Below, piece by piece: positions 6,581 to 24,802 of a stretch of DNA of 64,000 nt; positions within the stretch are counted from its first letter, which is position 1; each line of letters begins with the position of its first letter. Source of the DNA: a virus. The position numbers and the translations under genes were made by a program. The stretch spans positions 2,873 to 66,872 of the IMG/VR virus record IMGVR_UViG_3300028802_000011; one strand, written 5' to 3'. Below the pieces are notes generated by a model. It was not told the origin of the DNA. It did no database searches and worked only from the letters and a program-made list of their open reading frames with translations.

Positions 6581-7717
6581 ATGGCAATCCATCAGCAGGG
6601 TAACGCACTAGTCTGCGTCGCAGGGTTTCTGAATAGCGGAGCTGCCGCTACTGGACTCACTGTTGCGGTCGACGTCTGGGAGATCGGCCTTGCAAGTGGG
6701 ACTGCGACACAGATAGTCTCGTCGGGATCAGCAACGGAGATTGCTCGAGGAGCATACTACTATCGCCTTGCTTCAAGTGGAGTAGATCTGAACGCTATCT
6801 ACTTGTTCATGTTCTTCACGGCGGGGACTGCAGACCAGAAGGTCATCATCCAGGGCTGGTCTGTTGGTATGACGTGGGTTGAGAACCTCAACGCACAACT
6901 TAGTGGGATTGCAGCCGCAGTGTGGGCCGTCGGTACAAGGACACTTACGAGTTTTGGCACACTCGTTGCAGATGTGACGACGGCTGTCTGGGCTAACGGT
7001 ACACGCACCTTAAGCTCGTTTGGGACGCTCGTTGCTGACATCTGGGCAAACGGCACGCGAACACTAACAGGCTTCGGCACACTAGTTGCAGACGTTGCAG
7101 CGCAAGTATGGAACTCGGTTGCTGCAACTTTCAACACTGCTGGCACGATGGGCCAGAAACTCAATGCTGCCGGCGGTGCTACGGATCCTTTGACAAACGC
7201 TGTCCCTGGATCCTACGGTGAAGGTACAGCCGGCGAAGCCCTTGGTGACATCCGTAGCATCAAATCAAAGACCGACCTCATCACTACTAACGGTGTGACC
7301 ATCACGTCACCGTACAATCCGGTAACTGGCAGATTGGCACTTACCAGAGGCGACGACTACCCCGCAACGGATCCGTTCCCGCTTCAGTTCAGTAGCGATA
7401 CCTGGCCTGATCTTACTGGAGCGACGGTTCAGTTGACAATTCGTAGGAAGCCGGTGAACCCGACGATCTCCGACGCTGCTCTGTTGACAATGACGGACAC
7501 TGTTGCTTTGAGAATCGACGGTGACGGCATCGAACAGACAGTTACGTTCGAACCTATGTCCAGTGGAAGTGCAAACGGCCAGGTCGGCAGCACTGTTGAT
7601 CTCGACACAGGTGTTTCGTCCGTGAAGTTCGACGTTCAGGCCACTCTGGCAAGTGGAACCAAGAAGACCCTCGTGGCTGGCCTTGGTGATATCACCGAAG
7701 ACCAGACGCGCGGCTAA
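6581..7717 (+). CDS. Virion structural protein with Trp-containing repeats and BppU-like C-terminal domain
   Basis: Repeats VWxxGTRTLTxFGTLVAD; C-terminal LTRGDDY...DLTGATVQLTIR resembles BppU-type beta sandwiches. Confidence 0.55.
   Translation: MAIHQQGNALVCVAGFLNSGAAATGLTVAVDVWEIGLASGTATQIVSSGSATEIARGAYYYRLASSGVDLNAIYLFMFFTAGTADQKVIIQGWSVGMTWVENLNAQLSGIAAAVWAVGTRTLTSFGTLVADVTTAVWANGTRTLSSFGTLVADIWANGTRTLTGFGTLVADVAAQVWNSVAATFNTAGTMGQKLNAAGGATDPLTNAVPGSYGEGTAGEALGDIRSIKSKTDLITTNGVTITSPYNPVTGRLALTRGDDYPATDPFPLQFSSDTWPDLTGATVQLTIRRKPVNPTISDAALLTMTDTVALRIDGDGIEQTVTFEPMSSGSANGQVGSTVDLDTGVSSVKFDVQATLASGTKKTLVAGLGDITEDQTRG
6920..7112 (+). repeat. Three degenerate in-frame tandem repeats (18-22 codons)
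   Basis: VWAVGTRTLTSFGTLVAD / VWANGTRTLSSFGTLVAD / IWANGTRTLTGFGTLVAD. Confidence 0.85.
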
Positions 7718-7730
7718 GAAAGGTCAGGTC

Positions 7731-8918
7731 ATGGAGAAGAAGAGGAAGTTGCTGTGGATCGGTGATGCTGTGGTTTCGTCCGGGTTCGCACGTGCCACAC
7801 ATCACACGCTCGACGTCTTGAAGGAAAGTTGGGACGTGAGTGTCCTCGGCCTCAACTACATGGGCGATCCACATCAATATCCTTACGATATCTATCCGGC
7901 CTGGTCCGGAGGCGATGCATTCGGTGTCAAGCGGACTGCTGCCCTCGTGTCGAAGATCCGGCCTGATCTGGTAGTTGTGCAGAACGACCCGTGGAATGTA
8001 CCGGAGTACATGAAGCGAGCCGGCGACTGCCCAACTGTCGCGACGATGCCAGTCGACGGAAAGAATTGCCGAGGCGCTGCCCTGAACGGTCTCCTCCTCG
8101 GAATCTTCTGGACGCAGTTCGGCTTGGACGAAGCTCGCAAGGGAGGATATGCTGGTGAAGCCGCCGTCGTTCCTCTTGGTGTTGATCTCGAGCTCTACAA
8201 GCCTTCGGTCACGAAGAAGGAAGCTCGTGAGAAGATCGGCCTCCCGAACGCTGTGAAGGACGGCTTCCTCGTTGGCAATGTCAATAGGAACCAGCCGCGA
8301 AAGAGATTGGACTTGACAGTTCAGTATTTCGCCGAGTGGGTGCATTCGTTTGGCATCAAGGACGCGTATCTGTTCTTGCATGTGGCTCCCACGGGCGACC
8401 AGGGCTATGACGTGAAGCAGCTCATGAAGTACTACGGATTGCCTGGCAGGCTCATCCTGTCCGATCCTGAGATCGGCATGGGGTCGCCCGAAGCGAGCCT
8501 TCCGTACTTGTACCAGTCGTTCGATGCGCAGATCTCGACGACGCAGGGCGAGGGCTGGGGACTCACGACGATGGAGGGAATGGCCTGCGGTGTTCCGCAG
8601 ATTGTTCCGGAGTGGGCGGCGCTTGGCGAATGGTGTGAGGATGGAGTCATCAAGATTCCGTGTCGCGATCAGATCGTGACGCCGAACAACATCAACGTCG
8701 TCGGCGGTGTTCCTTCCAAGACGCACTTCATGAACGCACTCGCGAACGTTTATAACAACGAAGGCGTTCGCAAGGACCTCATCGCTCGTGGCCTGGCAGT
8801 TGTGCGGAAGCCGCAGTACCGCTGGAAGGCTGTCGGCGAAGCCTTCGCGAAGGCTCTGGACGAAGTCAGGTATGTCTCCAGGAACGACGAAGTTGAAGAG
8901 GTGGAGGTCAAGGTCTAA
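7731..8918 (+). CDS. GT4-like glycosyltransferase
   Basis: LLWIGDAVVSSGFAR, PLGVD, NRNQPRKRLD, GEGWGLTTMEGMACGVPQI. Confidence 0.9.
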   Translation: MEKKRKLLWIGDAVVSSGFARATHHTLDVLKESWDVSVLGLNYMGDPHQYPYDIYPAWSGGDAFGVKRTAALVSKIRPDLVVVQNDPWNVPEYMKRAGDCPTVATMPVDGKNCRGAALNGLLLGIFWTQFGLDEARKGGYAGEAAVVPLGVDLELYKPSVTKKEAREKIGLPNAVKDGFLVGNVNRNQPRKRLDLTVQYFAEWVHSFGIKDAYLFLHVAPTGDQGYDVKQLMKYYGLPGRLILSDPEIGMGSPEASLPYLYQSFDAQISTTQGEGWGLTTMEGMACGVPQIVPEWAALGEWCEDGVIKIPCRDQIVTPNNINVVGGVPSKTHFMNALANVYNNEGVRKDLIARGLAVVRKPQYRWKAVGEAFAKALDEVRYVSRNDEVEEVEVKV

Positions 8919-9722: not shown

Positions 9723-10145
9723 ATGCCCGACGCAATTTCCGCACAAGGAACGTTGGTCGCGAGAGCGCCGGCGGCGACGCCCACGGTTTTCACCACGATC
9801 GCCGAGCTCCGCGATATCACGCCTCCGCCCCTCACTCGGAACCCCATCGAGACGACTTCGCACAACGAAGCGGAGGAGTCGTTCGTCGTTGGGATCCGAC
9901 GCAAGGGAGAGTTCACCTTCAGCATCGGTTATGTCGGGTCGCTCGCCACGCATAACGAAGCGACGGGTCTCACGAAGGCCTGGCTCGACGGGAGCCGCGA
10001 CATCTACAAGATCACGTTCCCGGACAACACGATCTGGTTGTTCTCCGGCTACGTCACGAACATCGCCCCGTCCGCACCGGTCGACGACGGCTTGACGGCC
10101 GACGTCACGATCCGTCCGACCGGGATCATGACGATCACGAGCTAA
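9723..10145 (+). CDS. Major tail tube protein
   Basis: IAELRDITPP..TRNPIETTSH, YKITFPD, FSGYVT, TADVTIRPTG resemble siphovirus tail tubes; strong RBS. Confidence 0.85.
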   Translation: MPDAISAQGTLVARAPAATPTVFTTIAELRDITPPPLTRNPIETTSHNEAEESFVVGIRRKGEFTFSIGYVGSLATHNEATGLTKAWLDGSRDIYKITFPDNTIWLFSGYVTNIAPSAPVDDGLTADVTIRPTGIMTITS

Positions 10146-10877: not shown

Positions 10878-13826
10878 ATGGCTCTCAGCATTGCCGAACT
10901 CGTAGGAACAGTCGAGCTCGAGGACAAGTTCACACCTGGTCTCGACAAACTGACCGGGAGTATGGTCAGTGCTGGAGCCGTCATCGGTGTTGCAATCGCT
11001 GCCGTTACGGGTTTGACAGTTGCAATTGTCAAGCTCGGCGAGCGCGGTGCCGAGATCGAGGACGTTGCAAGGAACTTCGAGGGCCTTTCCATGAGGGTCA
11101 ACGAAACAGCAGACGCGATGCTGGGAGCCTTGCGCAAGGGTACAGCCGGTGTCGTGAGCGACTTCGAGCTCATGAAGATGTCGAACAAAGCGATGGGCGC
11201 CGGCTTCCAGGGCTCTGCGAAAGACATGGAGACTCTGGCAGCCGGCGCACGTGAGCTCGCCAATCGCGTCGGGCTCGAGGGAGGTACTGCCGCCGCGTTC
11301 GACTTGCTCACCTCCTCGATGGCGAAGGGCAAAGCTCAGGGCCTGGCGCAGCTCGGCCTCATGGTCGATCAGAAGGCTGCTCTCGAGAACTACGCTGCGT
11401 CCATTGGCAAGAGTGCTAGTGAACTTAGTGGCCTCGAGAAGAAGCAGGCCACACAGAAAGCAGTGCTCGAGGCTTTGGCAGGTACTCTGAAGGACGCAGG
11501 AACACAGAGCCTGGACTTCAGCGAGAAGATAGGCCGAGTAGTTACCTTCGTTCAAAACTTCGTAGACAAACTGGCGCTAGCAATTAGCAAATCGCCAGTG
11601 CTGAACGCCGCACTTGACTCGATGGCGAAGGCCTTCGAGACTGCGTTTGGTGATGACCAGAGTGCTGCGATTTCGTTCATCGTTGGCCTGGTCGAAGACT
11701 TCGCCATCATCATGGTGAAAGTTGCTGAAGCAACTGTCACTGGAGTGAAGTTCATCTCTGACGCTTGGATGTTGTTCGACGTCGCTTTCAACTTGATCAT
11801 GACGGGAGTCTTCGCGATCTCGGCGAAATTCATCACGACACTCGAGTCGATGTTGCAGGCCTCCCTCAAACTGGCGCAGTCTGTTCTGGCAATTGCACAG
11901 GCAGGACAGGCCATCCCTGGAATCGGCGGGGCGATGACCGTCGCCGCCGCTGGATTGTCAGTTGCAATCGGTGGGATCAAGAGCGATCTTGGATCCATCA
12001 AGGGAATGGGTGCTGATCTCGAGGGGATGGCGGATGGTTTCGCAAAGAACGTAGATAAGGCTTTTGCTGATTCAGACAAACGTGCAGAAGGTCTTGACAA
12101 TCTCAGCAAGGGGCTCAAAGGTTTCCGTGAAGGAATGGAAGCCGCGAAGGGAACTGCTGAGAAGGCGACTGCTCCAACAAAGGCCTTCGCCGCTGCTGTT
12201 GACACGCTTGGTGAAACGACAGCTCAAACTGCCGAGAAGCAAAAGAAGCTTCTCGAGGTGATGAATCGTCTTGGCCCGAGCACGATGAGCATCGAGAAGG
12301 ACTTCGATGACCTCATTGAATCCTTCAATGCTTTGGGTGGGGATCTTACCAAACTAACAGACAAGCAACTGGTCACTTTCATCCAGAAGTTGCAGGTCAT
12401 GGCCGAGAGTGGATCAGCCACAGAGCCCGTCTTCATGTCCTTGGCCGCTGCCATGGACGAGATGGGAGGACGCAGTGACTTCGCTGCTAAGCAAGTTGGA
12501 TTGCTCGGCAGCGAAATGAAGAAGACTGAGACTAAGACGAAGGCTGTCGCGGATCAAACTCTCACTCTTGGGATGGCCTTCGACACAGTTGCTGACATCG
12601 TTGGCGCTCTCGGATTCAGCACCGATTCGTTCCTTGGGAGCTTGGCGAATGGTCTCAAGCAGGCCATCGGCCTTGCTGGCAATCTCGGCAAGACATTCGC
12701 CGTGATGGAGAACGGCGTCCAAGTAGGAACGAAGGGCTTCGGCGCGTTGAGTATGGGCGATAAGCTCGGCGTTGGAACACAAGTCCTCGGCGCTGGCATT
12801 GACATATTCAAGGGAGGCCAGCAACAGGGAGCAGTGAAGGGAGCTCTCGGCGGTGCCATGAAGGGAGCCATGATCGGCTCTGCCATTCCTGGAGTTGGAA
12901 CTCTACTTGGAGCAGGAGCAGGTGCCCTCCTCGGAGGGATCGGCGGATTGTTCGGTGGAGGCGAAGGCAAGAAAGTCAAGGAAGGACGAAATCAGTTTAT
13001 CGAGGAGCAGGGGGGACTTGAGCAACTTCAAAGACGTGCAGAGGCTGCCAACGTTAGTCTGACTGCTCTCTTTGATGCAAAGAAAACTGCTCAACTGAAA
13101 CAGGCCATCACGGATATCAACTCACAGTTGAGTACATCTGAGGGCGCTCATGCTGCCCTTGCCGATGCAGTTGAACGATACGGGTTCACGGTCGAGGAGC
13201 TTGGCCCAAAGTGGCAGGCTCAGCAACTTGACTCGATGGCCGGTAGTCTGCTTCAGGACTATCAACTCCTCATTGCGAGCGGCATCGAGAACGAAACTGT
13301 CATCAATCGGATGGGACCGGCGTTCAACGAGTACGTCCAGACTGTACTCGCATCCGGAGCTGCTATTCCCGAAGCGATGCGTCCCATTCTCGAAGACATG
13401 GTCGAGATGGGAACTCTTACTGATGCTGCTGGCAACAAGATCGAGTCCTTGGAAGGCATCAAGTTCGCCGAGTCGATGAGTGATCAGCTGTCCAAGATTG
13501 TCGAAGGCATTCAGCAGATGGTTGCTGCACTCACTGGGATCCCCAACGTTGAGAGAACAGTAACTGTCAGAACTGTCCACGACGATGGTGGAGCAAACGG
13601 GAACATGAAGGTTCCTGGAATGGCAACGGGAGGCCTCGTCACTAGGCCGACTCTGGCAGTTGTTGGTGAGGCAGGCCCTGAGGCTGTGATCCCATTGGAC
13701 AAGCTTCACGAGATGCAGGGTTCAGGCGGAGGAGGTATCACGAGGGCGGACATGCAATCTATGATGACGGCGCAGCGCCGTCAGCTCACACTCGCCATCA
13801 GAGACGCACTGATCCAGAGTAGGTGA
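10878..13826 (+). CDS. Tape measure protein
   Basis: 982 aa, Ala/Gly-rich helical; C-terminal MATGGLVTRPTLAVVGEAGPEAVIPL. Confidence 0.92.
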   Translation: MALSIAELVGTVELEDKFTPGLDKLTGSMVSAGAVIGVAIAAVTGLTVAIVKLGERGAEIEDVARNFEGLSMRVNETADAMLGALRKGTAGVVSDFELMKMSNKAMGAGFQGSAKDMETLAAGARELANRVGLEGGTAAAFDLLTSSMAKGKAQGLAQLGLMVDQKAALENYAASIGKSASELSGLEKKQATQKAVLEALAGTLKDAGTQSLDFSEKIGRVVTFVQNFVDKLALAISKSPVLNAALDSMAKAFETAFGDDQSAAISFIVGLVEDFAIIMVKVAEATVTGVKFISDAWMLFDVAFNLIMTGVFAISAKFITTLESMLQASLKLAQSVLAIAQAGQAIPGIGGAMTVAAAGLSVAIGGIKSDLGSIKGMGADLEGMADGFAKNVDKAFADSDKRAEGLDNLSKGLKGFREGMEAAKGTAEKATAPTKAFAAAVDTLGETTAQTAEKQKKLLEVMNRLGPSTMSIEKDFDDLIESFNALGGDLTKLTDKQLVTFIQKLQVMAESGSATEPVFMSLAAAMDEMGGRSDFAAKQVGLLGSEMKKTETKTKAVADQTLTLGMAFDTVADIVGALGFSTDSFLGSLANGLKQAIGLAGNLGKTFAVMENGVQVGTKGFGALSMGDKLGVGTQVLGAGIDIFKGGQQQGAVKGALGGAMKGAMIGSAIPGVGTLLGAGAGALLGGIGGLFGGGEGKKVKEGRNQFIEEQGGLEQLQRRAEAANVSLTALFDAKKTAQLKQAITDINSQLSTSEGAHAALADAVERYGFTVEELGPKWQAQQLDSMAGSLLQDYQLLIASGIENETVINRMGPAFNEYVQTVLASGAAIPEAMRPILEDMVEMGTLTDAAGNKIESLEGIKFAESMSDQLSKIVEGIQQMVAALTGIPNVERTVTVRTVHDDGGANGNMKVPGMATGGLVTRPTLAVVGEAGPEAVIPLDKLHEMQGSGGGGITRADMQSMMTAQRRQLTLAIRDALIQSR

Positions 13827-13827
13827 C

Positions 13828-15462
13828 ATGTTCGACCCTGTCTTTCCTGAAGATGTCAAGGTCTGGGCGGATCTTGGATCCGGTTTTGTCCAGATCCCTG
13901 ATGTAGATCTCAGTTCGCCGATAAGTATTCAACGAGGGAACCAAGGAACATCTCTTGTTGACATCATGGCAACTACAGGGTCAGCCTCTTTTGACCTTGA
14001 CAATAGTACTGACAATAGCGCCGGCCTGCTCGGACTATACTCGATCAACAATATCAACACCCTCCCGGGATGGCATCCAGGAATCCCGATTAAGCTCACT
14101 GTCAGATTCTTGGCGGTTGACGAGCCCATCTTTTTCGGCAAGATGGTTTCGGCTGAGCCGCAGTCAGGAAAATATGGGAACCGGAAGGTCACTGTCAACT
14201 GCGTTGACTGGATGGAAGAAGCGGCGACAGCGAAGGCATCGGGAATCCCGGTCCAAATCAACAAGAGGTCGGACGAGATCTTTGCGCTCCTTCTTGAAGT
14301 CATCGAGCGGCAGCCGGTAGCAACACAGATCGGCATCGGCGCCGATACTTACCCGTACGCTCTTGATAATGCGCTTGACGGTGACATCAACGTGATGTCT
14401 GAGTGGCAGCGGCTGCTCGACTCCGAACGGGGATACGCTTTCGTGAAGAGGAACGGAACCCTGGTATACCAGGGCCGGCATCGTCGCACGAATCTGTTCT
14501 CTCTTTCGGCCACAATAACAGACGAAGACATCATGAACGTTGACACTTCTCGGGGGATCGAGGAGGTCTATAACAAGGCACAGGTACAATCTCATCCGCG
14601 GCGTGTTGACGCACTCGCAACGTCCATCTTGTTCAGCCTGGCGTCAAAGCCGCGTATCGAGAGGAACACCTCCTCGAACTTTAACGCTCCGTATCGGGAT
14701 CCTTCCGCGCGTGCTACGCGCGCGGGCGGTCTCAACATGGTCACGCCAGTCATCACGACGGACTACACTTTCAACTCTCTAGAAGATGGAAGTGGCACAG
14801 ACCTCACGCATCAACTTGATGTTACGATCCCGAATGGATTCGGAGGTAACAGTGCAGACGTTCTAGTCTTTAACAACGGTCCTCAAGACGGATTCCTGAC
14901 GAAGCTTCAACTTCGTGGGCGCGGTGTCTACGACTACGAGACGGTTCTGTCCGAAGCCGAGAGCATGGCTTCGCGAGTGAAGTATGGCCTGCGTGAGTTC
15001 ACGTTGGATCAACCTTACCAGAGTGATCCGCTTGTCTCCGAGGACACTGCGCATTTCATCGTTGCGCAAACTAAGCACCTCATCACTCAGGTTCGTGGAG
15101 TTTCGTTCATCGGAAACAGGGAAGAGCGCCTCATGCGCTATGCCCTGCAAGTCGACATCGGTGACCGGGTCCATGTTGAAGAGACAATGGTTGGCACTGT
15201 ACCTGTCACTCCTGTCGATGAACCTCAAGCTGTGAGTGCTCTCGAGTTCTTTGTCAACGCGGTGACGTTGACAATTGTCGAAGGCCCGATGGTCTACTGT
15301 ACTTGGGGACTGGTGCCGGCCGATCCATTCAACTACTGGATCTTGGAGCGCACTGGATTCACCGAACTGGACTTTACGACGAGGTTGGCCTATGGCTCCT
15401 TCGTCGCCGGCTGGGTCCTTGATGAGAGTGAGCTTGGAAGTGGAACGCGGGTCAACCCGTAA
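13828..15462 (+). CDS. Minor tail / tail-tip hub protein
   Basis: Follows the tape measure; beta-rich 544 aa; VDIGDRVHV motif. Confidence 0.7.
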   Translation: MFDPVFPEDVKVWADLGSGFVQIPDVDLSSPISIQRGNQGTSLVDIMATTGSASFDLDNSTDNSAGLLGLYSINNINTLPGWHPGIPIKLTVRFLAVDEPIFFGKMVSAEPQSGKYGNRKVTVNCVDWMEEAATAKASGIPVQINKRSDEIFALLLEVIERQPVATQIGIGADTYPYALDNALDGDINVMSEWQRLLDSERGYAFVKRNGTLVYQGRHRRTNLFSLSATITDEDIMNVDTSRGIEEVYNKAQVQSHPRRVDALATSILFSLASKPRIERNTSSNFNAPYRDPSARATRAGGLNMVTPVITTDYTFNSLEDGSGTDLTHQLDVTIPNGFGGNSADVLVFNNGPQDGFLTKLQLRGRGVYDYETVLSEAESMASRVKYGLREFTLDQPYQSDPLVSEDTAHFIVAQTKHLITQVRGVSFIGNREERLMRYALQVDIGDRVHVEETMVGTVPVTPVDEPQAVSALEFFVNAVTLTIVEGPMVYCTWGLVPADPFNYWILERTGFTELDFTTRLAYGSFVAGWVLDESELGSGTRVNP

Positions 15463-15474
15463 GGAGATGTACTG

Positions 15475-15762
15475 ATGGCCTGGACTACTCCACGAACGTG
15501 GCTGGCAGGTGAGCTCGTCAAGGAAGGCGATCTCAACGCACAGATCCGTGACAACCAAACTATCTTGAAGACGCCCATCACTGATGCTGGAAAGATCGTG
15601 GCGTTGAGCTCGACCTACTTGGCAGATCTCAGTGGTTCGAACTTGACCGGCGTCGCGAAGCTTGCGGCGGCGAACACGCATACCGCAGGTGTGAACACCT
15701 TCAACGGAGGCGCTGGCGTCCGCGTGATCCTTCCTGTAGGTGCGGATAAGTGGGCGACCTAA
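15475..15762 (+). CDS. Short tail-fibre-like protein (MAWTTPRTW paralog 1)
   Basis: Aligns over its full length with the N-terminus of the next ORF. Confidence 0.7.
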   Translation: MAWTTPRTWLAGELVKEGDLNAQIRDNQTILKTPITDAGKIVALSSTYLADLSGSNLTGVAKLAAANTHTAGVNTFNGGAGVRVILPVGADKWAT

Positions 15763-16734
15763 ATGGCTTGGACCACTCCTAGAACGTGGGTCGACGGGGA
15801 AATCGTAACTGCCGCGATGATGAATGCACACATTCGCGACAACTACGGTATCCTCAAACTACCTATCAACGACGACGGCCGGTTCCTTGGGCTGAGCTCT
15901 GCCACTCTTGCTGACTTGGACGGCACGAACCTCACCGGTCTGGTAAAGCCCGGCTCCTCGAACTCTCACACTGCCGGTGTCAATGACTTCAACGGAGGAA
16001 GTGCCACCAGATTCGTTCTGCCAGTTGGCACAGACAAGTTCGACGGTACTGGTGGGAACAAAACGGCTGGCTCTAAGTGGGTAGAAGGTGACTACCTACA
16101 TCACGTAGCTAGCAATCAGAACGAGTGGCGCTATCCTGGCGTTTTCGTTAGCACTCCCGGGGGAGCTGTCATTGGAAGTTACTGGATCGAATCCAACGAA
16201 GAGCATTACATAGACGCTGACGGTGACGAGCGCAAGATTACTGGCACTGCGACGGGGATGCACAACGACGTCCTTGCGCGCGCTGGTAGTGTGTGGGTCG
16301 AAACTTATCAGCACTTCGTTGGATCTGCAGGAGTTCAAGAGTACCAGAGTCACGATGATCTTCATGGGGATTCTGCACCGAGTCACAACGATGCACATTC
16401 CGACGGTCATGATGATACTCACGGCGATGGTGGTGCAGGCCACGATGACTCCCACTCTGATGGGCACGATGACAATCATGGTGACACTCACGACGATGTT
16501 GCTCATGACGACTTCCATCAGGATCACGACGACGAAGTAATCCATGATGACAATCACACTGACACACATGACGACGATCACAGTGACACTCACGACGATA
16601 ACCACGGTGACAGTCATGGGGACTCCGTGGATCACGACGACGCGCACAACGATGACCACAGTGACAGTCACGGCGACGGGATTGTAGGACACATTGACAC
16701 GCACGGCGACGCTCCTGAAAGTATTGGCACATGA
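15763..16734 (+). CDS. Tail-fibre-like protein with C-terminal His-x-Asp repeat tract (MAWTTPRTW paralog 2); candidate substrate of the adjacent radical SAM enzyme
   Basis: Anchor-type N-terminus, three GSxW[VI]E..H repeats, then 27 HxD motifs. Confidence 0.75.
   Translation: MAWTTPRTWVDGEIVTAAMMNAHIRDNYGILKLPINDDGRFLGLSSATLADLDGTNLTGLVKPGSSNSHTAGVNDFNGGSATRFVLPVGTDKFDGTGGNKTAGSKWVEGDYLHHVASNQNEWRYPGVFVSTPGGAVIGSYWIESNEEHYIDADGDERKITGTATGMHNDVLARAGSVWVETYQHFVGSAGVQEYQSHDDLHGDSAPSHNDAHSDGHDDTHGDGGAGHDDSHSDGHDDNHGDTHDDVAHDDFHQDHDDEVIHDDNHTDTHDDDHSDTHDDNHGDSHGDSVDHDDAHNDDHSDSHGDGIVGHIDTHGDAPESIGT
16351..16710 (+). repeat. Coding low-complexity repeat of 27 H-x-D motifs, mostly period 4
   Basis: HDDLHGD..HNDAHSDGHDDTHGD..HIDTHGD; codons vary, so conservation is at the protein level. 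Confidence 0.95.
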
Positions 16735-17960
16735 CATATGAATTGATGCCGTTGAACACACAGTGCAACATCAAGTGCGAGTACTGTTATCAGGAGGGCC
16801 TGCGCGAGAACGAGGAAGACAAGCCCTACTCAATGGAGCGGATGCGGGAAGCTCTGCTGCGCCAGGGCCAGAAGTTTATGGTCTTCGGCGGTGAGCCTCT
16901 GCTAGTTCCCATCGGAGACCTCGAGGAGATCTTCAAGTTGGGCCTCGAGAAGTATGGATCGAACGGCATACAAACTAACGGGTCGCTCATCACGGACGCA
17001 CACATCGCTCTGTTCAAGAGATACAGTGTCTCGGTTGGAATCTCTCTTGACGGTCCTGGTGAGTTGAACGATGCGCGTCGCATCGGTGATCTGGAATCCA
17101 CACGACGAACCACCGAACGCTCTGAAGCGAATCTTCTCCGCTGTATGGAAGAGAAGGTTTGCCGTGGAGTCATCGTCACCCTTCACAAGTTGAACGCCAG
17201 ACCTGACCGGCTGCCTCGTCTGGTTGAGTGGATCAAGTTCCTGTGCGACAAAGGCATGACGAGCGTTCGCTTCCATGCGCTCGAGATCGACAGTGCAGTT
17301 GCAGAGATGCTCGCCCTCAGTGAAGACGATGCAGTCGCAGCAATGTTGACACTGCGAGAACTGTGCATTGAAAAAGATCTCATCGTGCATGAGTTCGCCG
17401 ACATCGCGGCTTTACTGAGAGGCCAGGACAAAGGCGCATCCTGCATCTGGAACGGCTGCGATCCTTGGACGACTCCTGCAGTGAGCGCGCTTGATGGCCA
17501 GGGCGAACGAAAGAACTGCGGCCGCACAAACAAAGATGGCAAGAGCTGGATGAAGGCCTCCAGCCCTGGTCATATGAGACAGTTGATTCTATACAACACT
17601 CCTTACGAAGACGGCGGATGTAAGGGATGCAGGTTCTTTGTGATGTGCAAGGGAAACTGTCCAGGCCACGGTATCGATGGCGACTGGCGCAGCCGGCCTC
17701 GTGACTGCCGTGTTTGGATGAGGCTCTTCGAAGAGACTGAAGCGACGATGCTTCGTCTTGGACAGAAGCCTGTGTCCAAATGGACGAACCTCGCGAAGCT
17801 CGAGGAGGTTATGCTCAAGGAGTGGGCGGCTGGACGTCAGCCGATAGTTGAGGACGGGATCGCCATTCTAAACGGCAAGAAACCAGCCTATTCGTCTGGG
17901 CCTGGCGGTCATATTGATTGGCACAAGGATCACAACGACGCTTCAGGAGCAAATCAATGA
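16731..17960 (+). CDS. Radical SAM/SPASM peptide-maturase-like enzyme
   Basis: CNIKCEYC, FGGEPLL, IQTNG, GISLDGP; C-terminal CIWNGC, NCGR, CKGCRFFVMCKGNCPG, RDC; ATGA overlap with the HxD protein. Confidence 0.92.
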   Translation: MTYELMPLNTQCNIKCEYCYQEGLRENEEDKPYSMERMREALLRQGQKFMVFGGEPLLVPIGDLEEIFKLGLEKYGSNGIQTNGSLITDAHIALFKRYSVSVGISLDGPGELNDARRIGDLESTRRTTERSEANLLRCMEEKVCRGVIVTLHKLNARPDRLPRLVEWIKFLCDKGMTSVRFHALEIDSAVAEMLALSEDDAVAAMLTLRELCIEKDLIVHEFADIAALLRGQDKGASCIWNGCDPWTTPAVSALDGQGERKNCGRTNKDGKSWMKASSPGHMRQLILYNTPYEDGGCKGCRFFVMCKGNCPGHGIDGDWRSRPRDCRVWMRLFEETEATMLRLGQKPVSKWTNLAKLEEVMLKEWAAGRQPIVEDGIAILNGKKPAYSSGPGGHIDWHKDHNDASGANQ

Positions 17961-19273
17961 TTCCCGAATTCTTCCGTGGGCCGATCTGGGTATCCGGTGA
18001 TGCACAGAAGGCCTGGGAGCCGAAGATCAAAACGGCCAGTGCTCTCTGGAACGTTCTCGAGCGCGCGAGCGTGGTTCATAACATTCGCCGCAGCGCTCTC
18101 CTGTCCATATCTGTTAGTGAACTACCAGACCTCGTGAAGGACGTTGACAAGTGTGGACTTGAAGTGACAGTCCTGAACACTACTCACATGTCTGGTTCGT
18201 ACGCGTCCAGTCAAGCAACGTCCGGGCCTCTTGGCCTGAGGGTCGCCCTTCACGGGCCAGGTGATGCGCACGACTGGGTCGAAGCGTTTCATTCCTCCGA
18301 CAACGACGCCATCGGTCACCTCCTCGGATTCCCATCTTGCTGCCGGGAGTTCTTCGAGGAGACTTGGGGGAAGGGAGCCAAGGACTCAACTCTGCAGATG
18401 GCCGGCAGCGACGGACCGAACGCGATCAACATCATGCTGCGCTGGTTGAACGTTCGGCTGGTCCCGCATCTTCCGTGCTCCTTCGATTGTCGCAAGTCGT
18501 TGGACTTCGCCGCCGATATGGTGCAGCTTGCACACAGTCTTGATCTCATTGATCAAGTGGAAACTTCCCTGTCTCTGCTGGGCCTGCCGATGCAGTACAG
18601 CGCTCTTCACGGTGCGATGCAGTTGGTCACACCTGTGTTCAAGTTCGCGGCATCAACGGACTACACTGCCAAGAAGATTACTAAGGAACGGAAAGGTAAG
18701 TTCACAGAGCTTACGCCGATCGTTCTTAGTGACGAGGAACTTGAGGCCAGAGTCAACGGGTTTACTTCAAAGGATGTAATGAATGATTGTCACGATCTCG
18801 TACTGGGTGGAGCGAGATGTGTGGAGAACAGTGACCCTGTTCTGGACCTCGGCTGCGGTGACGGGACACTCGCGGGTATGGTTGCAGGCTACTCGGCTGT
18901 CCCCGTCTACGGAGTAGACCTCAGCGCTGATGCGATCCTCGCTGCGCACAAGAAGTTCCCCGGCGCGAAGGATAACTTCTGGGTTGACAAGTTCCAGTAC
19001 GCATTTGACAGGAACGACGTGATGTATGGCATCACTCTGTTGATGCCAGGCAGGCTCGTTGAGATGAAGGACAGTAACAAGACCAAGCGGTTCTTGGATG
19101 TCCTGTTCGCGCGTTCCAAAGTCGTCATCGCCTATGCGTACTCGGATTGGCTCAAGGATCAAAGCATCGAGGAGCTCTGCAAGAAAGCGGGGATCAGTCG
19201 CCCTCCGGACTTCGTCCTTCAAAACACTGCACCGAAGGCCGGCGTCGCGGTCTACAAGCGGAGGCAGGTATGA
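17957..19273 (+). CDS. Fusion of a Cys-motif domain (DUF483-like) and a class I SAM-dependent methyltransferase
   Basis: GHLLGFPSCC and HLPCSFDC in the N-half; VLDLGCGDG and YGVDLS in the C-half; ATGA overlap. Confidence 0.7.
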   Translation: MIPEFFRGPIWVSGDAQKAWEPKIKTASALWNVLERASVVHNIRRSALLSISVSELPDLVKDVDKCGLEVTVLNTTHMSGSYASSQATSGPLGLRVALHGPGDAHDWVEAFHSSDNDAIGHLLGFPSCCREFFEETWGKGAKDSTLQMAGSDGPNAINIMLRWLNVRLVPHLPCSFDCRKSLDFAADMVQLAHSLDLIDQVETSLSLLGLPMQYSALHGAMQLVTPVFKFAASTDYTAKKITKERKGKFTELTPIVLSDEELEARVNGFTSKDVMNDCHDLVLGGARCVENSDPVLDLGCGDGTLAGMVAGYSAVPVYGVDLSADAILAAHKKFPGAKDNFWVDKFQYAFDRNDVMYGITLLMPGRLVEMKDSNKTKRFLDVLFARSKVVIAYAYSDWLKDQSIEELCKKAGISRPPDFVLQNTAPKAGVAVYKRRQV

Positions 19274-20055
19274 CGGAGTGGGCCAGGATCGCGAAGCCGC
19301 AGCCTGACGACTACGACACAGTCAAGCTCCTCGAGCAAGCATATCGTCGATGGGGATACGGAAGCATTTACTCCGGAGGTCCTCGCTTCTGTAAGTTCAT
19401 GGAGTTGACAAACACAGACAAGACGAGCTCAGGTGAATTCGCTGCGATCAACGACCCACGACTAACTGCTGTCGAAGATATCATCCGAAGTTGGCAGCAC
19501 TCTGACAGTCTTCGTCTGCTGGACTTCTTCAGCCCGATGAAGTTCGACAGACCAGTTGGAAGAGGATGCACGTCGGGGCACAGCAAGCCTTCAGAGAGAG
19601 GACGCATAGGATGCTACGTGACGATCGATGATCCTACCGGCTGCGCTGAAGGGATTGTGCACGAGCTTGCACATCAGCGACTTCATTGCTTAGGGATGGA
19701 TCTTGATAGTCACGATCGTACTCTAATCCTGAATGACAACGAACTGAAGTGGTTCAGTCCTATTCGGCGGGATTGCCTTCGCCCCATGACAGCGTTGATC
19801 CACGGGATCTATGCCTATACGTTCGTGTTGAGCATCGACCTCATTGCTTCAGACGGGATTGAGTACTTGAAAAACAATGTCCCGAAAGTACGTCGAGGTC
19901 TCGAAGAGATTAGCAAGGGAGTCGAAGTAACAGACGAAGGTGTCGAGTTCATGAAAGGCTTCCTGGAATGGGCCTATTCACTCGTTCATGAAGGCGAGGC
20001 TACTCTGTTGAATGCTGGTGTCGCCGAAGTTTACTGGGAGGGGTATCGTGGCTGA
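19270..20055 (+). CDS. aKG-HExxH family peptide beta-hydroxylase-like protein
   Basis: EGIVHELAHQRL plus FSPIRRDCLRPMTALIHGIYAY, matching the HExxH...SPxRxDxRP...HGxYA signature; ATGA overlap. Confidence 0.85.
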   Translation: MTEWARIAKPQPDDYDTVKLLEQAYRRWGYGSIYSGGPRFCKFMELTNTDKTSSGEFAAINDPRLTAVEDIIRSWQHSDSLRLLDFFSPMKFDRPVGRGCTSGHSKPSERGRIGCYVTIDDPTGCAEGIVHELAHQRLHCLGMDLDSHDRTLILNDNELKWFSPIRRDCLRPMTALIHGIYAYTFVLSIDLIASDGIEYLKNNVPKVRRGLEEISKGVEVTDEGVEFMKGFLEWAYSLVHEGEATLLNAGVAEVYWEGYRG

Positions 20056-20569
20056 AGAGCTGACGACTGGTGAATGGCCGTGGGTCGTGATGCACGGGGA
20101 ACATCCTGCCTGGTACCAGCGCTCGTTGATAGTTGGCGACTTCGCACCTGGCAGGATCCCGGCTTCTAATTACGCTGTCTCTCTTGATGGAGATATATTC
20201 GGCCCTGATGAGCGCCCGTTCTGTGGCACTTGTCTTGCTGAACCTCTAACTGATGAGCTCGATGTGATGGAGCGCAGCACTGGCAACTCAAGCTTCTTGT
20301 CGCTCTACAGGAATCCTAATCATCGCCTGCCGTGGCCTCCTCCTACGAATCCCGCGACCTGCTGGTACTGCAACGACAACAGTGTTCGGGTGAAGAAGGA
20401 AGTGAAGATCGAGGACATCGCCAAAGCGGCGTTCGGGAAAGATCGCAAGACCAAGTCCAGAGCGAAGGTGCTCGTGTGTTCGAAGTGCTCGGACTTCGTT
20501 GACAAGCGCAGAGAACAGAAGGATCGCGTGAGGGATCCGAGAAACAATGACGACCGAGGAGGTAGATAG
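20048..20569 (+). CDS. Cys-rich hypothetical protein
   Basis: CGTC, CWYC, CSKC; overlaps both neighbours. Confidence 0.6.
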   Translation: MAEELTTGEWPWVVMHGEHPAWYQRSLIVGDFAPGRIPASNYAVSLDGDIFGPDERPFCGTCLAEPLTDELDVMERSTGNSSFLSLYRNPNHRLPWPPPTNPATCWYCNDNSVRVKKEVKIEDIAKAAFGKDRKTKSRAKVLVCSKCSDFVDKRREQKDRVRDPRNNDDRGGR

Positions 20570-21024
20570 TGGCCTGGACAACTCCTAGAACGTGGAGTGC
20601 CGGCGAGACCGTCACCGCCACGATCATGAACACCCACGTTCGCGATCAGTTCAACGCACTCGCGAACAAGGCTATCATCGTTTCAATTGGTAGTGCTGGC
20701 GGAGGTGTCATTCCTAACGGTCACAAGATGTACGTCGAGATCCCTGTCAATCTCCGTGCGACAGGCTGGACAGTTGTGTCCGACGCTTCCGGCACTATTG
20801 TCTTTGACATCTACAAGGATTCTTACGCTAACTTCCCGCCGACAGTTGGGGACAGTATGACTGGTACGGAGAAGCCCACTCTCAGCGGCCAGCAGAAGAA
20901 CCAGGATCTGACGCTGTCCTCGTGGAGCACGGACATCCTCGCCGGTGATGTACTCGCCGTCGTCGTGTCGAACGTTGCAACAGTGCAGCAAGTGACACTG
21001 TCAATCAGGTGTGAGCCACTCTGA
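20569..21024 (+). CDS. Tail-fibre-like protein (MAWTTPRTW paralog 3)
   Basis: Same N-terminal module followed by a beta-sandwich (DIYKDSYANFPPTVGDS..KPTLS). Confidence 0.7.
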   Translation: MAWTTPRTWSAGETVTATIMNTHVRDQFNALANKAIIVSIGSAGGGVIPNGHKMYVEIPVNLRATGWTVVSDASGTIVFDIYKDSYANFPPTVGDSMTGTEKPTLSGQQKNQDLTLSSWSTDILAGDVLAVVVSNVATVQQVTLSIRCEPL

Positions 21025-23216: not shown

Positions 23217-23501
23217 ATGGCGCGCTACCTGGCACAGTGCGGCGAGCCGGTCAACTTCGAACACGACAACGAGCCGGTCATCGCCATTCGCAACGAGTTC
23301 TACGTGCGCGAGGACCTGGTCGGGTCGCACTCGGAGATGACCATCAAGATCCTGTGCCTCCTCGGAACCCTCATGAACTTCGCAGTGCGCCAGTGCTCGT
23401 ACTGCAAAATCGTACTCGGCATCAAACCCTGCGTGAAGGGCGGGATGACTCACGGCGTCTGTCCTGCCTGCATCGCTACACTTATGGAGACCCGACAGTG
23501 A
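23217..23501 (+). CDS. Small zinc-finger protein
   Basis: CSYC...THGVCPAC. Confidence 0.55.
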   Translation: MARYLAQCGEPVNFEHDNEPVIAIRNEFYVREDLVGSHSEMTIKILCLLGTLMNFAVRQCSYCKIVLGIKPCVKGGMTHGVCPACIATLMETRQ

Positions 23502-24802
23502 AGGGGAAACCCGTCGCCCACGACTCGAACACCTGCAACTGGGACAAGACCAAGATCAGGCACTTCATCACCTGCAAGACGTGCCGCACTCAGTCACTCG
23601 TTTGGCATACGTGCAACATCGTCGGGGGTCAGGATCGCTACGCTCTCTACGAGTCCGTCGTCGGCACGAAGGTCATCGCTGATACGATGAAGCCTCACGT
23701 GTGCCGTGACCGGTTCGCGGTGAACAATCTCCCTGCACCTGGTGCAGCGGCGACGCCGGCGCCGGCTGCCAGCGCGAACATCGGTGGCGAATCGCTGAGC
23801 GCTGAGCAGATCAAGGAAATCTTCGACGAGGTCGTCGCTCGCAGTGGTGCAGTAACCAGCGAGGACGTCATGCGTCAGATCGACGAAACGATTGGGAGGC
23901 TCGCGATTCCTATTCGTCCGATTCGCATCGAGCTCCGTGCAGGTGGCGAAGTGCGCTCCATCGAAGGCGCTCATCGCCAGGTGCCTGAGCTCCTGTACTG
24001 GGCGAACGCGAAGGACCTCCAGGGTCATCGCTTCCCGGTGATGTTGTACGGGAAACCTGGCGTCTCGAAGAGCTACTCGGCGCACCAGGTGGCGAACCTC
24101 ATGGGCCTGTCGTTCGGGCTCATCAGCCTCAATCCCCAAACTCCCGAGTCGCGGCTCTTCGGGTTCATCGATGCGAGCGGCCGGTATCACCGAACCATGT
24201 TTCGTGAGGCCTTCGAGAACGGTGGCCTCTACCTCATCGACGAGATCGACAACGCGAGCGATGCTCTCTTGACAAGCTTGAACTCCTGCCTGGCAAACGG
24301 ACACGGAGCCTTCCCGGATGGCCTCGTCAACCGGCATCCCGACTTCGTGTGCGTTGCGACTGCGAACACTCCTGGCAGAGGAGGCGATGCGAATCACTCG
24401 GGTCGTCGTCAGTTGGATGCAGCAACTATCAATCGCTTCGCGGTGGTCGACTGGCAGAATGACGACGAGCTCGAGATGCGGCTGGCCCGGGCGACGAACC
24501 CCAAGTGCGGCGAGGTCTGGCTCAACTGGATCCGTCGCGTTCGTGAGTACTGCGGCAAGCATCACCCGAAGGTCATCGTCAGTCCGCGCTCCACAATGAT
24601 GGGAGCGAAGGCCATCCTGGATTCACAGTTCACTCTCGAGCAGATCGCCGACATGACGCTCTTCAAGGGTCTTGACAAAGACACGAAGGCGAAGATCATC
24701 GCGGCCTGCCCGATGCCCGTGGTTGTGCGGGTGAAGGAACACCTGGCCGAATGCGAAGAGCCTGGCATCACGTGCGAATGCCCGGAGGTGATCAATGCGT
24801 AG
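23498..24802 (+). CDS. MoxR/CbbQ/CobS-like AAA+ ATPase
   Basis: GKPGVSKS Walker A variant, LYLIDEID Walker B, ATANT, LDAATINRF. Confidence 0.85.
   Translation: MKGKPVAHDSNTCNWDKTKIRHFITCKTCRTQSLVWHTCNIVGGQDRYALYESVVGTKVIADTMKPHVCRDRFAVNNLPAPGAAATPAPAASANIGGESLSAEQIKEIFDEVVARSGAVTSEDVMRQIDETIGRLAIPIRPIRIELRAGGEVRSIEGAHRQVPELLYWANAKDLQGHRFPVMLYGKPGVSKSYSAHQVANLMGLSFGLISLNPQTPESRLFGFIDASGRYHRTMFREAFENGGLYLIDEIDNASDALLTSLNSCLANGHGAFPDGLVNRHPDFVCVATANTPGRGGDANHSGRRQLDAATINRFAVVDWQNDDELEMRLARATNPKCGEVWLNWIRRVREYCGKHHPKVIVSPRSTMMGAKAILDSQFTLEQIADMTLFKGLDKDTKAKIIAACPMPVVVRVKEHLAECEEPGITCECPEVINA

Follow-up and report, generated by a model that had tools for sequence, protein, structure and literature searches.

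A phage tail gene with a His-x-Asp array next to a radical SAM/SPASM enzyme: a candidate phage copy of a widespread protein-maturation system

The subject of this report is a block of genes in a viral DNA stretch of 64,000 nucleotides, positions 2,873 to 66,872 of the record IMGVR_UViG_3300028802_000011 (66.9 kb in total, CheckV completeness 86%); this whole stretch is called the window in the following, and nearly all of its genes lie on the plus strand. Within its tail module, a protein with a dense array of His-x-Asp (HxD) triplets is encoded directly ahead of a radical S-adenosylmethionine (SAM) enzyme of the SPASM type and of two further putative enzyme genes, listed here with strand and the basis of each name (ORF, open reading frame):

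15763-16734, plus strand: 323-aa HxD-array protein (ORF, motif count)
16351-16710, plus strand: HxD tract, residues 197-316 of that protein, proposed substrate (27 HxD triplets)
16731-17960, plus strand: radical SAM/SPASM enzyme, 409 aa, proposed maturase (PF04055, Cys pattern)
17957-19273, plus strand: 438-aa fusion protein, DUF483-like plus methyltransferase (Pfam, relatives)
17957-18760, plus strand: DUF483-like domain, residues 1-268 of the 438-aa fusion (PF04467 sub-threshold, relatives)
18761-19273, plus strand: class I SAM-dependent methyltransferase domain, fused to the DUF483-like domain (Methyltransf_25)
19270-20055, plus strand: 261-aa aKG-HExxH-type protein, proposed hydroxylase of the modified tract (TIGR04267)

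Successive ATGA start/stop overlaps at 16731, 17957 and 19270 join the array gene, the radical SAM gene, the fusion gene and the HExxH gene in sequence. These overlaps had been pointed out in a preliminary description of the window, as had the enzyme families (radical SAM/SPASM, Cys domain with methyltransferase, HExxH), on which Pfam, TIGR04267 and the Cys patterns agree.

The HxD-array protein contains 34 His residues in total, 27 of which fall within residues 197-316, and every one of these 27 is followed by Asp at position +2, exactly as first counted; a 28th HxD, at residue 167, lies outside the tract. From residue 196 to the C-terminus (128 residues) Asp (41), His (27), Gly (15) and Ser (12) are found, and the triplets follow one another at a spacing of 3 to 7, mostly 4, residues. 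When the 120-residue tract was shuffled 200,000 times, the mean number of HxD was 9.15 and the maximum 19, none of the shuffles reaching 27. At the DNA level, 26 HxDx units are encoded by 26 distinct 12-nt strings and TRF reports only a single short imperfect repeat (24 nt x 2.9), which argues for a motif kept at the protein level and against recent DNA expansion. The middle position of the triplets is Asp or Asn in 13 of the 27, compared with 1-11% in the other loci described below. No further array protein was found in the window, the next-best real ORF having 3 HxD among 16 His.

The 323-aa protein is built of an anchor module (residues 1-93), a beta domain of three hairpins (about 100-196), the HxD tract and a short C-terminal strand. 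In the AlphaFold2 model (mean predicted local distance difference test score, pLDDT, of 61) residues 100-200 are at 80-95, the tract is at about 48, and residues 311-323 are at 73-90, with a strand at 319-322. The phage homologues (25 sequences) have, after their last triplet, a conserved end of the form Pro-x-x-[V/I]-Gly with a nearly invariant Pro; as modelled, the tract resembles a long loop fixed at either end, the C-terminal strand packing back on the beta domain. The best match of this model in a PDB structure search is the bacteriocin LLPA (Z 3.9), and a BFVD search gave one real match, A0A451ED92 (E 9.4e-10, 39% identity, 342 aa), apparently another array protein, and nothing else. A complex prediction for the radical SAM enzyme together with residues 190-323 of the array protein scored 0.00 in two runs, made without controls, and speaks neither for nor against binding.

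The 409-aa enzyme matches Radical_SAM (PF04055) with 49.4 bits against a cut-off of 29.5. Its Cys residues follow the pattern CX3CX2C at residue 12, C243-X14-G-X4-C263, C297-X2-C-X5-C-X3-C310 and C326, that is, a radical SAM core and a full SPASM domain as defined by the Cys pattern of its auxiliary clusters, and the Cys residues of core and SPASM domain are invariant in 32 homologues. Among curated NCBIfam families the low-score matches are, best first, the anaerobic sulfatase maturase (anSME, 74.6 bits), DynA (68.4), YhhB (64.8), AmcB (64.2) and GrrM/OscB (53.9); by family assignment, the best of them are protein or peptide maturases. Profile searches of the PDB with the enzyme family point in the same two directions, to anSME (4k36, 1e-18) and to the triceptide synthase ChlB (9gm3, 1.3e-13). 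The enzyme also bears three HxD triplets of its own at the C-terminus (17910-17939), and at least two HxD after the last Cys were found in 58 of its 120 best homologues; in the tails of those homologues 268 of 399 His stand in HxD, versus 46 of 1012 in the enzyme cores. Such a tail could serve as a substrate of the enzyme itself, mimic a substrate or bind metal.

Relatives of the enzyme are widespread: at E ≤ 1e-20 the family comprises 1043 proteins among 8000 candidates scored, and, of the matches inspected, 429 of 600 pattern matches in species-representative genomes (spread over many phyla, with one archaeon) and 189 of 565 in IMG/VR were relatives. For the comparison of neighbourhoods, 80 plus 79 loci were kept and L001-L005 were added (loci carry L numbers); L005, the window's own record, was excluded from the cross-locus counts of strand, residue fractions, partner genes and HExxH/position 2. 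Enzymes at phmmer E < 1e-60 were regarded as orthologues, giving 132 such loci with the own locus included, and an array was defined as at least five HxD with gaps of no more than 12 residues outside the radical SAM ORF. By this definition, an array is present in 104 of the 132 orthologue loci (103 of 131 without the own one), from phages as well as many phyla of bacteria, and in six additional loci whose enzymes are more distant, versus 0 of 26 control loci holding only remote radical SAM enzymes (L139-L164). The array ORF lies on the enzyme's strand in 126 of 131 cases, and in 104 of 131 array ORFs the array ends no more than 30 residues from the C-terminus.

Besides the array, one partner accompanies the enzyme nearly everywhere. 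Of 79 genome loci, 72 have a DUF483-like neighbour by single-sequence search, as do 45 of 49 viral loci, and an iterated search found the domain in 133 loci, in 22 of which it shares a single open frame with the radical SAM domain. When neighbouring six-frame ORFs within 6 kb were clustered, the radical SAM group covered 131 loci and the DUF483 group 118, the next cluster being restricted to 17; no conserved protease or exporter was found among these neighbours. Among the same 79 genome and 49 viral loci, 22 and 31, respectively, have a methyltransferase, fused or neighbouring, and 26 and 7 an HExxH homologue; both together, as in the window, are found in 6 of the 49 other viral loci.

The arrays share a rule rather than a period. 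In 175 tracts Asp stands at +2 of 2916 of the 3047 His residues and at -2 of only 634, while the spacing of the triplets ranges from 3 to 9 residues; the invariant unit thus is the triplet, and it is directional. In 126 distinct tract regions (19,299 residues, identical regions entered once) the fraction followed by Asp or Asn at +2 is 0.956 for His, 0.376 for Tyr, 0.295 for Phe and 0.233 for Trp, figures which are partly circular for His, since HxD defined the tracts, but not for Tyr, Phe and Trp; for all non-aromatic residues it is 0.108 or less. As judged from these sequences, only aromatic residues are enriched before Asp/Asn at +2, and this is the aromatic-x-X3 signature of triceptide cyclophanes. 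The same latitude is seen in individual loci: Phe-x-Asn and His-x-Asn arrays in L099, L101, L112 and L126, YDD/FDD repeats in a bacterium (L080) and, in one motif, a swap of His for Tyr between the Thermus phages Cumys and phiMa. Because Phe can stand in for His, a cross-link involving the aromatic ring is favoured over a purely metal-binding tract.

The carriers of the arrays are between 150 and more than 1,000 aa long and have as many as about 90 motifs. A three-hairpin beta domain resembling that of the window precedes the array in 35 of 49 viral loci, and in four viral loci (L086, L087, L093 and L132) the array forms the C-terminus of a homologue (E 1e-67 to 4e-77) of the 544-aa protein which in the window directly follows the tape measure. 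Bacterial carriers are either small proteins with a motif resembling a twin-arginine translocation (Tat) signal or large proteins with the array at their end. The RRx-hydrophobic (Tat-like) motif precedes the array in 23 bacterial ORFs (for example, L011 9349-10098 and L015 7226-7945) and in 0 viral ones, which fits maturation in the cytoplasm before export. The 1377-aa bacterial array protein upstream of the enzyme in L016 (3864-7994) contains Tectonin and Tachylectin (lectin) domains, which suggests a carbohydrate-binding extracellular protein with an HxD end. As a separate observation, long Phe-x-Asn, His-x-Asn or Pro-Phe-x-Asn repeats take the place of much of the HxD array in six viral loci (L099, L101, L102, L104, L112 and L126), and the arrays of L102 and L104 have a Cys-rich knot added at the extreme end.

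The N-terminal part of the 438-aa fusion protein scores 18.3-19.6 bits with DUF483 (PF04467), short of the gathering threshold of 25, and 21 of 48 relatives match PF04467 at E ≤ 1e-3, for which reasons we call it DUF483-like. Cys128, Cys129 and Cys178 are invariant, Cys174 and His218 nearly so, and at E ≤ 1e-3 the family comprises 3548 representative proteins. Its structure model is of high confidence (pLDDT 92.2), and in the ESM Atlas this model retrieves only unnamed clusters, of whose members 16-20% carry PF04467. The methyltransferase assignment of the C-terminal part is marginal, Methyltransf_25 matching residues 295-335 of the fusion with 27.3 bits against a cut-off of 27, and eight other methyltransferase models score under their cut-offs on this protein. 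The HExxH protein, with HELAH at residue 131, passes the model of the aKG-HExxH-type peptide beta-hydroxylases (TIGR04267, 46.0 bits, cut-off 40) and has a weak PDB match to ChlH (8s5f, E 0.094); tblastn against 50,697 phage records gave no match.

Close relatives of the system are found in cultured phages. The enzyme is 47-48% identical to proteins of the Thermus phages phiMa, Cumys and phiLo (46.7-46.9% over 99% of the query for Cumys and phiMa). In Cumys and phiMa the enzyme gene lies in the baseplate/tail module, with an array protein directly upstream and a DUF483 protein, related to the window's domain at E 2e-27 to 5e-29, directly downstream; the array proteins have 344 and 343 aa, and 54 of 54 and 53 of 53 His, respectively, stand in HxD. 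The orthologous genes thus occur in the same order as in the window, namely anchor-like protein, array protein, radical SAM enzyme and DUF483 protein. The Thermus modules differ from the window in being devoid of methyltransferase and HExxH genes, and in having the anchor module as a 98-aa gene of its own, upstream of the array gene and with a similar LPVGTD end motif, whereas in the window an anchor is fused to the array protein and a separate copy is retained as well. In phiLo (L003), the minus strand at 13810-17118 encodes two array proteins of very large size (90 of 96 and 72 of 78 His in HxD), 5-8 kb from the radical SAM/DUF483 pair, which lies on the opposite strand. Arrays therefore need not adjoin the enzyme, and loci scored as devoid of one may have it further off.

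The preliminary description knew of no equivalent in phage virions, and this was nearly right. A module of radical SAM enzyme, DUF483 protein and a third, functionally unassigned protein has been described for phages and prophages of Thermus in a preprint (bioRxiv 10.1101/2024.08.14.607894), the accessible part of which proposes DNA modification, places radical SAM and DUF483 homologues beside deazapurine DNA-modification genes in some cyanobacteria and does not mention the His repeat, the word 'histidine' having 0 occurrences there. In the literature searched we found no account of HxD arrays with this enzyme, though the family might be listed in the triceptide papers or their supplements, or in Figure 3B or the supplementary files of the Thermus preprint, and the His-x-Asp pair as a cross-link was not found in print there either. 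In the N4 paper (PMC13434306) the ChlB paper is cited for the HExxH motif only.

The cassette sits within the tail module, a long way from the phage's genes for replication and DNA metabolism. The structural genes around it and one doubtful neighbour are:

9723-10145, plus strand: major tail protein (phrog_158, 1e-14)
10878-13826, plus strand: tape measure (weak match, phrog_10093, 1.7e-5)
13828-15462, plus strand: 544-aa tail protein, directly after the tape measure (named from context)
15475-15762, plus strand: 95-aa paralogue of the anchor module, without array (similarity to the N-terminus of the HxD protein)
20012-20569, plus strand: 185-aa Cys-rich ORF (ORF only)
20569-21024, plus strand: 151-aa tail or virion protein, GTG start (PHROG matches, anchor similarity)

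Paralogous tail genes had been reported on both flanks of the cassette, and this was borne out. The 95-aa ORF upstream resembles the HxD protein's N-terminus, with 60% identity over 93 residues (E 2e-39); the 151-aa ORF downstream shares the first 31 residues of the anchor module at 65% identity and matches phrog_10330 'virion structural protein' (1e-14) and phrog_35197 (6e-16). The 544-aa protein has no Pfam or PHROG family match. Membership of the 185-aa ORF in the cassette is doubtful: it has several CxxC pairs and shares 44 nt with the end of the HExxH gene, and neither a Pfam, NCBIfam or PHROG family nor a homologue in the 163 other loci was found. Two further genes may be mentioned in passing, a glycosyltransferase (phrog_2170, 3e-24) at 7653-8918, which stands upstream of the major tail protein in the midst of structural genes, and a 521-aa protein at 23237-24802, just past the tail module, with an AAA-type ATPase region and a match to phrog_249 'porphyrin biosynthesis' (6e-45).

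Among known systems, the closest likeness is to the triceptide pathways (XncB/XyeB, OscB/GrrM, MscB/FxsB, YxdB, HaaB, YhhB, HtkB, ChlB), in which a radical SAM/SPASM gene lies beside a substrate with repeated aromatic-X-X3 motifs, and for which His, Tyr, Phe and Trp at position 1 as well as Asp/Asn at position 3 are all precedented. According to passages of a review (PMC11002830), triceptide bonds link His-C2, Tyr-C3, Trp-C7 or Phe-C4 to C-beta of the residue at i+2, which is Ala, Arg, Asn, Asp or Ser; examples are His-C2 to C-beta (HaaB, YhhB), Tyr-C3 to Asp C-beta (YxdB), Trp-C7 to Asn/Asp C-beta (OscB) and Phe-C4 to Asn C-beta. With His-C2 links and Asp/Asn C-beta acceptors both on record there, each half of the bond proposed below has a precedent. 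HtkB has further been shown to link His-C2 to Lys C-beta, and multi-motif precursors are common among triceptides (PMC11499958). The window's system differs in that its enzyme stands outside all curated cyclophane-synthase models, that the substrates are whole proteins (in the window one of 323 aa with folded domains) and not leader-core peptides, that the DUF483-like partner is universal and that neither a leader protease nor an exporter is conserved. A DUF483-like partner is, to our knowledge, absent from all described triceptide pathways. Going by the name of TIGR04267, an aKG-HExxH partner presumably is present in some of them, and a paper by Morishita et al. in Nat Chem of 2024 reportedly deals, as its title indicates, with such a partner in a triceptide-type pathway. 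In motif style the nearest analogue would be the His-Xaa-Ser (Hxs) system of Haft and Basu, in which a protein with repeated His-x-Ser triplets reportedly is encoded with radical SAM/SPASM enzymes; no Hxs model appears among the matches listed (25 of 59 NCBIfam matches). The enzyme shares with anSME (PDB 4k36), its best-scoring curated family and structure, the radical SAM/SPASM architecture and with it, possibly, the modification of a full-length protein at C-beta. It differs from anSME in scoring far under the cut-off, in the absence of a sulfatase or a target of the Cys/Ser-x-Pro-x-Arg type nearby and in having different partner genes.

Taken together, the window would hold a phage copy of a widespread protein-maturation system consisting of an aromatic-x-Asp/Asn array, a dedicated radical SAM/SPASM enzyme and a DUF483-like partner, with a His-Asp cross-linked tail protein as its product, a reading to which we give a probability of roughly 0.58. 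That the array is the substrate of the enzyme appears highly probable; for the bond to be a His-Asp cyclophane we see about an even chance. In the sequence of events we envisage, the 323-aa tail protein would be made in the host cytoplasm, where the radical SAM enzyme would abstract a hydrogen from the C-beta of each Asp and bond this carbon to the imidazole ring of the His that stands two residues upstream, likely at C2 by analogy with HaaB, YhhB and HtkB. A floppy loop of 120 residues would thereby become a chain of up to 27 three-residue rings, which the HExxH protein would then probably hydroxylate and the methyltransferase probably methylate, while the DUF483-like domain may hold the substrate or run a second reaction at a metal site lined by Cys. 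The modified tract would stay within the protein, which the anchor module common to it and the neighbouring tail genes would mount on the tail tip, and could act there as a stiff, protease-resistant and possibly metal-binding surface.

A number of observations weigh against this reading, several of them concerning the chemistry, which we infer, the linkage of array and enzyme being well supported. The enzyme reaches no curated NCBIfam cut-off, and in the comparison by hidden Markov models that the preliminary description had suggested it passes none of the cyclophane-synthase models: scores are 42.5 for XyeB (cut-off 450), 53.9 for GrrM/OscB (310), 41.2 for FxsB (370), 64.8 for YhhB (445) and 64.2 for AmcB (425). 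The top curated match, the anaerobic sulfatase maturase (TIGR03942, cut-off 349.45, not reached), is an enzyme which oxidises C-beta without ring formation. The enzyme might act on the arrays without building a three-residue cyclophane, the candidates being C-beta oxidation of the sulfatase-maturase kind, epimerisation, an ether or a C-N linkage, His C-methylation or a built-in metal-binding cofactor, and we consider this unlikely, though far from negligible. Its case is strengthened, apart from the anSME matches, by the universal DUF483-like partner, whose four conserved Cys hint at extra or different chemistry, and by the HxD tails on about half of the enzymes, unusual for maturases of peptides that are synthesised ribosomally and modified after translation (RiPPs). 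It is weakened by the strict i/i+2 spacing with His, Tyr, Phe or Trp at position 1 and Asp or Asn at position 3, exactly the triceptide rule, by the Phe-x-Asn arrays, since a metal-binding or oxidation-only role would not predict Phe in place of His, and by the precedents, in the accessible part of PMC11002830, for each half of the cyclophane bond. The stapling of His to Asp first suggested for the window thus has the array-enzyme link (103 of 131 other loci versus 0 of 26 controls) and the aromatic-only rule in its favour, and the failure of every cyclophane-synthase model against it. Further caution is due to the partial circularity of the His statistics and to the locus ORFs, which are stop-to-stop six-frame translations and no gene calls. 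The DUF483-like model is uninformative in structure searches (no PDB match at E ≤ 0.001 with Foldseek; with VIA-align wide, the functionally uncharacterised 2guk as best match, with Z 6.9, a root mean square deviation (rmsd) of 3.2 and 99 aligned, followed by NleE, Z 4.5). The idea, taken from the 13 of 27 triplets in the window, that the HExxH enzyme targets extra Asp/Asn at triplet position 2 was rejected as a general rule: Asp/Asn at that position has a per-locus median of 0 in the 23 loci with HExxH and of 0.064 in the 86 loci lacking it, a difference that runs the other way from the idea (Mann-Whitney p = 0.011). We likewise infer the place of the protein in the virion and its biological role, its presence there being taken from gene position. 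'Tail-fibre-like', as the protein had been called, fits the tail-gene context and the homologues, but the beta domain has no recognised tail-fibre fold in the PDB search.

Other observations bear on whether array and enzyme belong together at all. A dense array is missing in 28 of the 132 orthologue loci, and cassettes without any HxD protein were named beforehand as speaking against the proposal; some of the 28 are cut contigs or have sparse HxD or Tyr/Phe-x-Asp repeats ending the upstream protein, and about nine are full-length loci with no array within 8 kb. Moreover, a tract rich in His and Asp could bind metal without any modification. The tract might then be an unmodified metal-binding or spacer element, the radical SAM enzyme, the DUF483 protein and the methyltransferase serving, for example, DNA modification, as the deazapurine genes beside the homologues in some cyanobacteria would suggest (bioRxiv 10.1101/2024.08.14.607894, accessible part). 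We regard this as improbable in view of the 104 of 132 loci, in unrelated phages and many phyla, against none of the controls, the common strand, the translational coupling in the window, the HxD triplets with which the enzymes often end themselves, the peptide-hydroxylase family of the HExxH protein and the position of the cassette in the tail module, distant from DNA metabolism. Still less do we expect the tract to be excised and released as a multi-core RiPP, the remainder of the protein being its leader, which had been offered as an alternative from the start. The multi-motif precursors common among triceptides (PMC11499958) and the small bacterial homologues of 150-250 aa with signal-like N-termini would suit it. 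No protease or exporter is conserved, however, only the radical SAM and DUF483 groups being widespread within 6 kb; the arrays end varied and often large proteins, including the tail protein after the tape measure and the Tectonin/Tachylectin protein, and the conserved Pro-x-x-[V/I]-Gly end, modelled as a strand packing on the beta domain, makes the tract look like a closed loop of a folded protein.

What the window adds to the family is a phage copy with a fuller enzyme set (methyltransferase and HExxH) and an anchor-fused carrier. More broadly, and only tentatively, aromatic-x-Asp/Asn arrays with their radical SAM/SPASM enzyme and DUF483-like partner may form an unrecognised class of poly-macrocyclised proteins, which in phages would provide rigid, metal-holding elements of the tail tip for receptor contact or penetration and in bacteria of many phyla would be exported once matured in the cytoplasm, the small forms via Tat, the DUF483-like domain being a new catalytic or substrate-handling component. 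As the system is carried by cultured phages (Thermus phages Cumys, phiMa and phiLo), it is directly testable. If the cross-linked tail protein proves true, it would be the first radical SAM 'natural-product' chemistry shown on a structural protein of a virus, ring-forming radical SAM chemistry would extend beyond small secreted peptides to virus particles and large extracellular proteins, and enzymologists would gain a large enzyme family whose substrates have dozens of sites. For phage structural biology it would mean a new covalent modification, which could explain stiffness, resistance to heat and proteases, and metal binding of tail tips.

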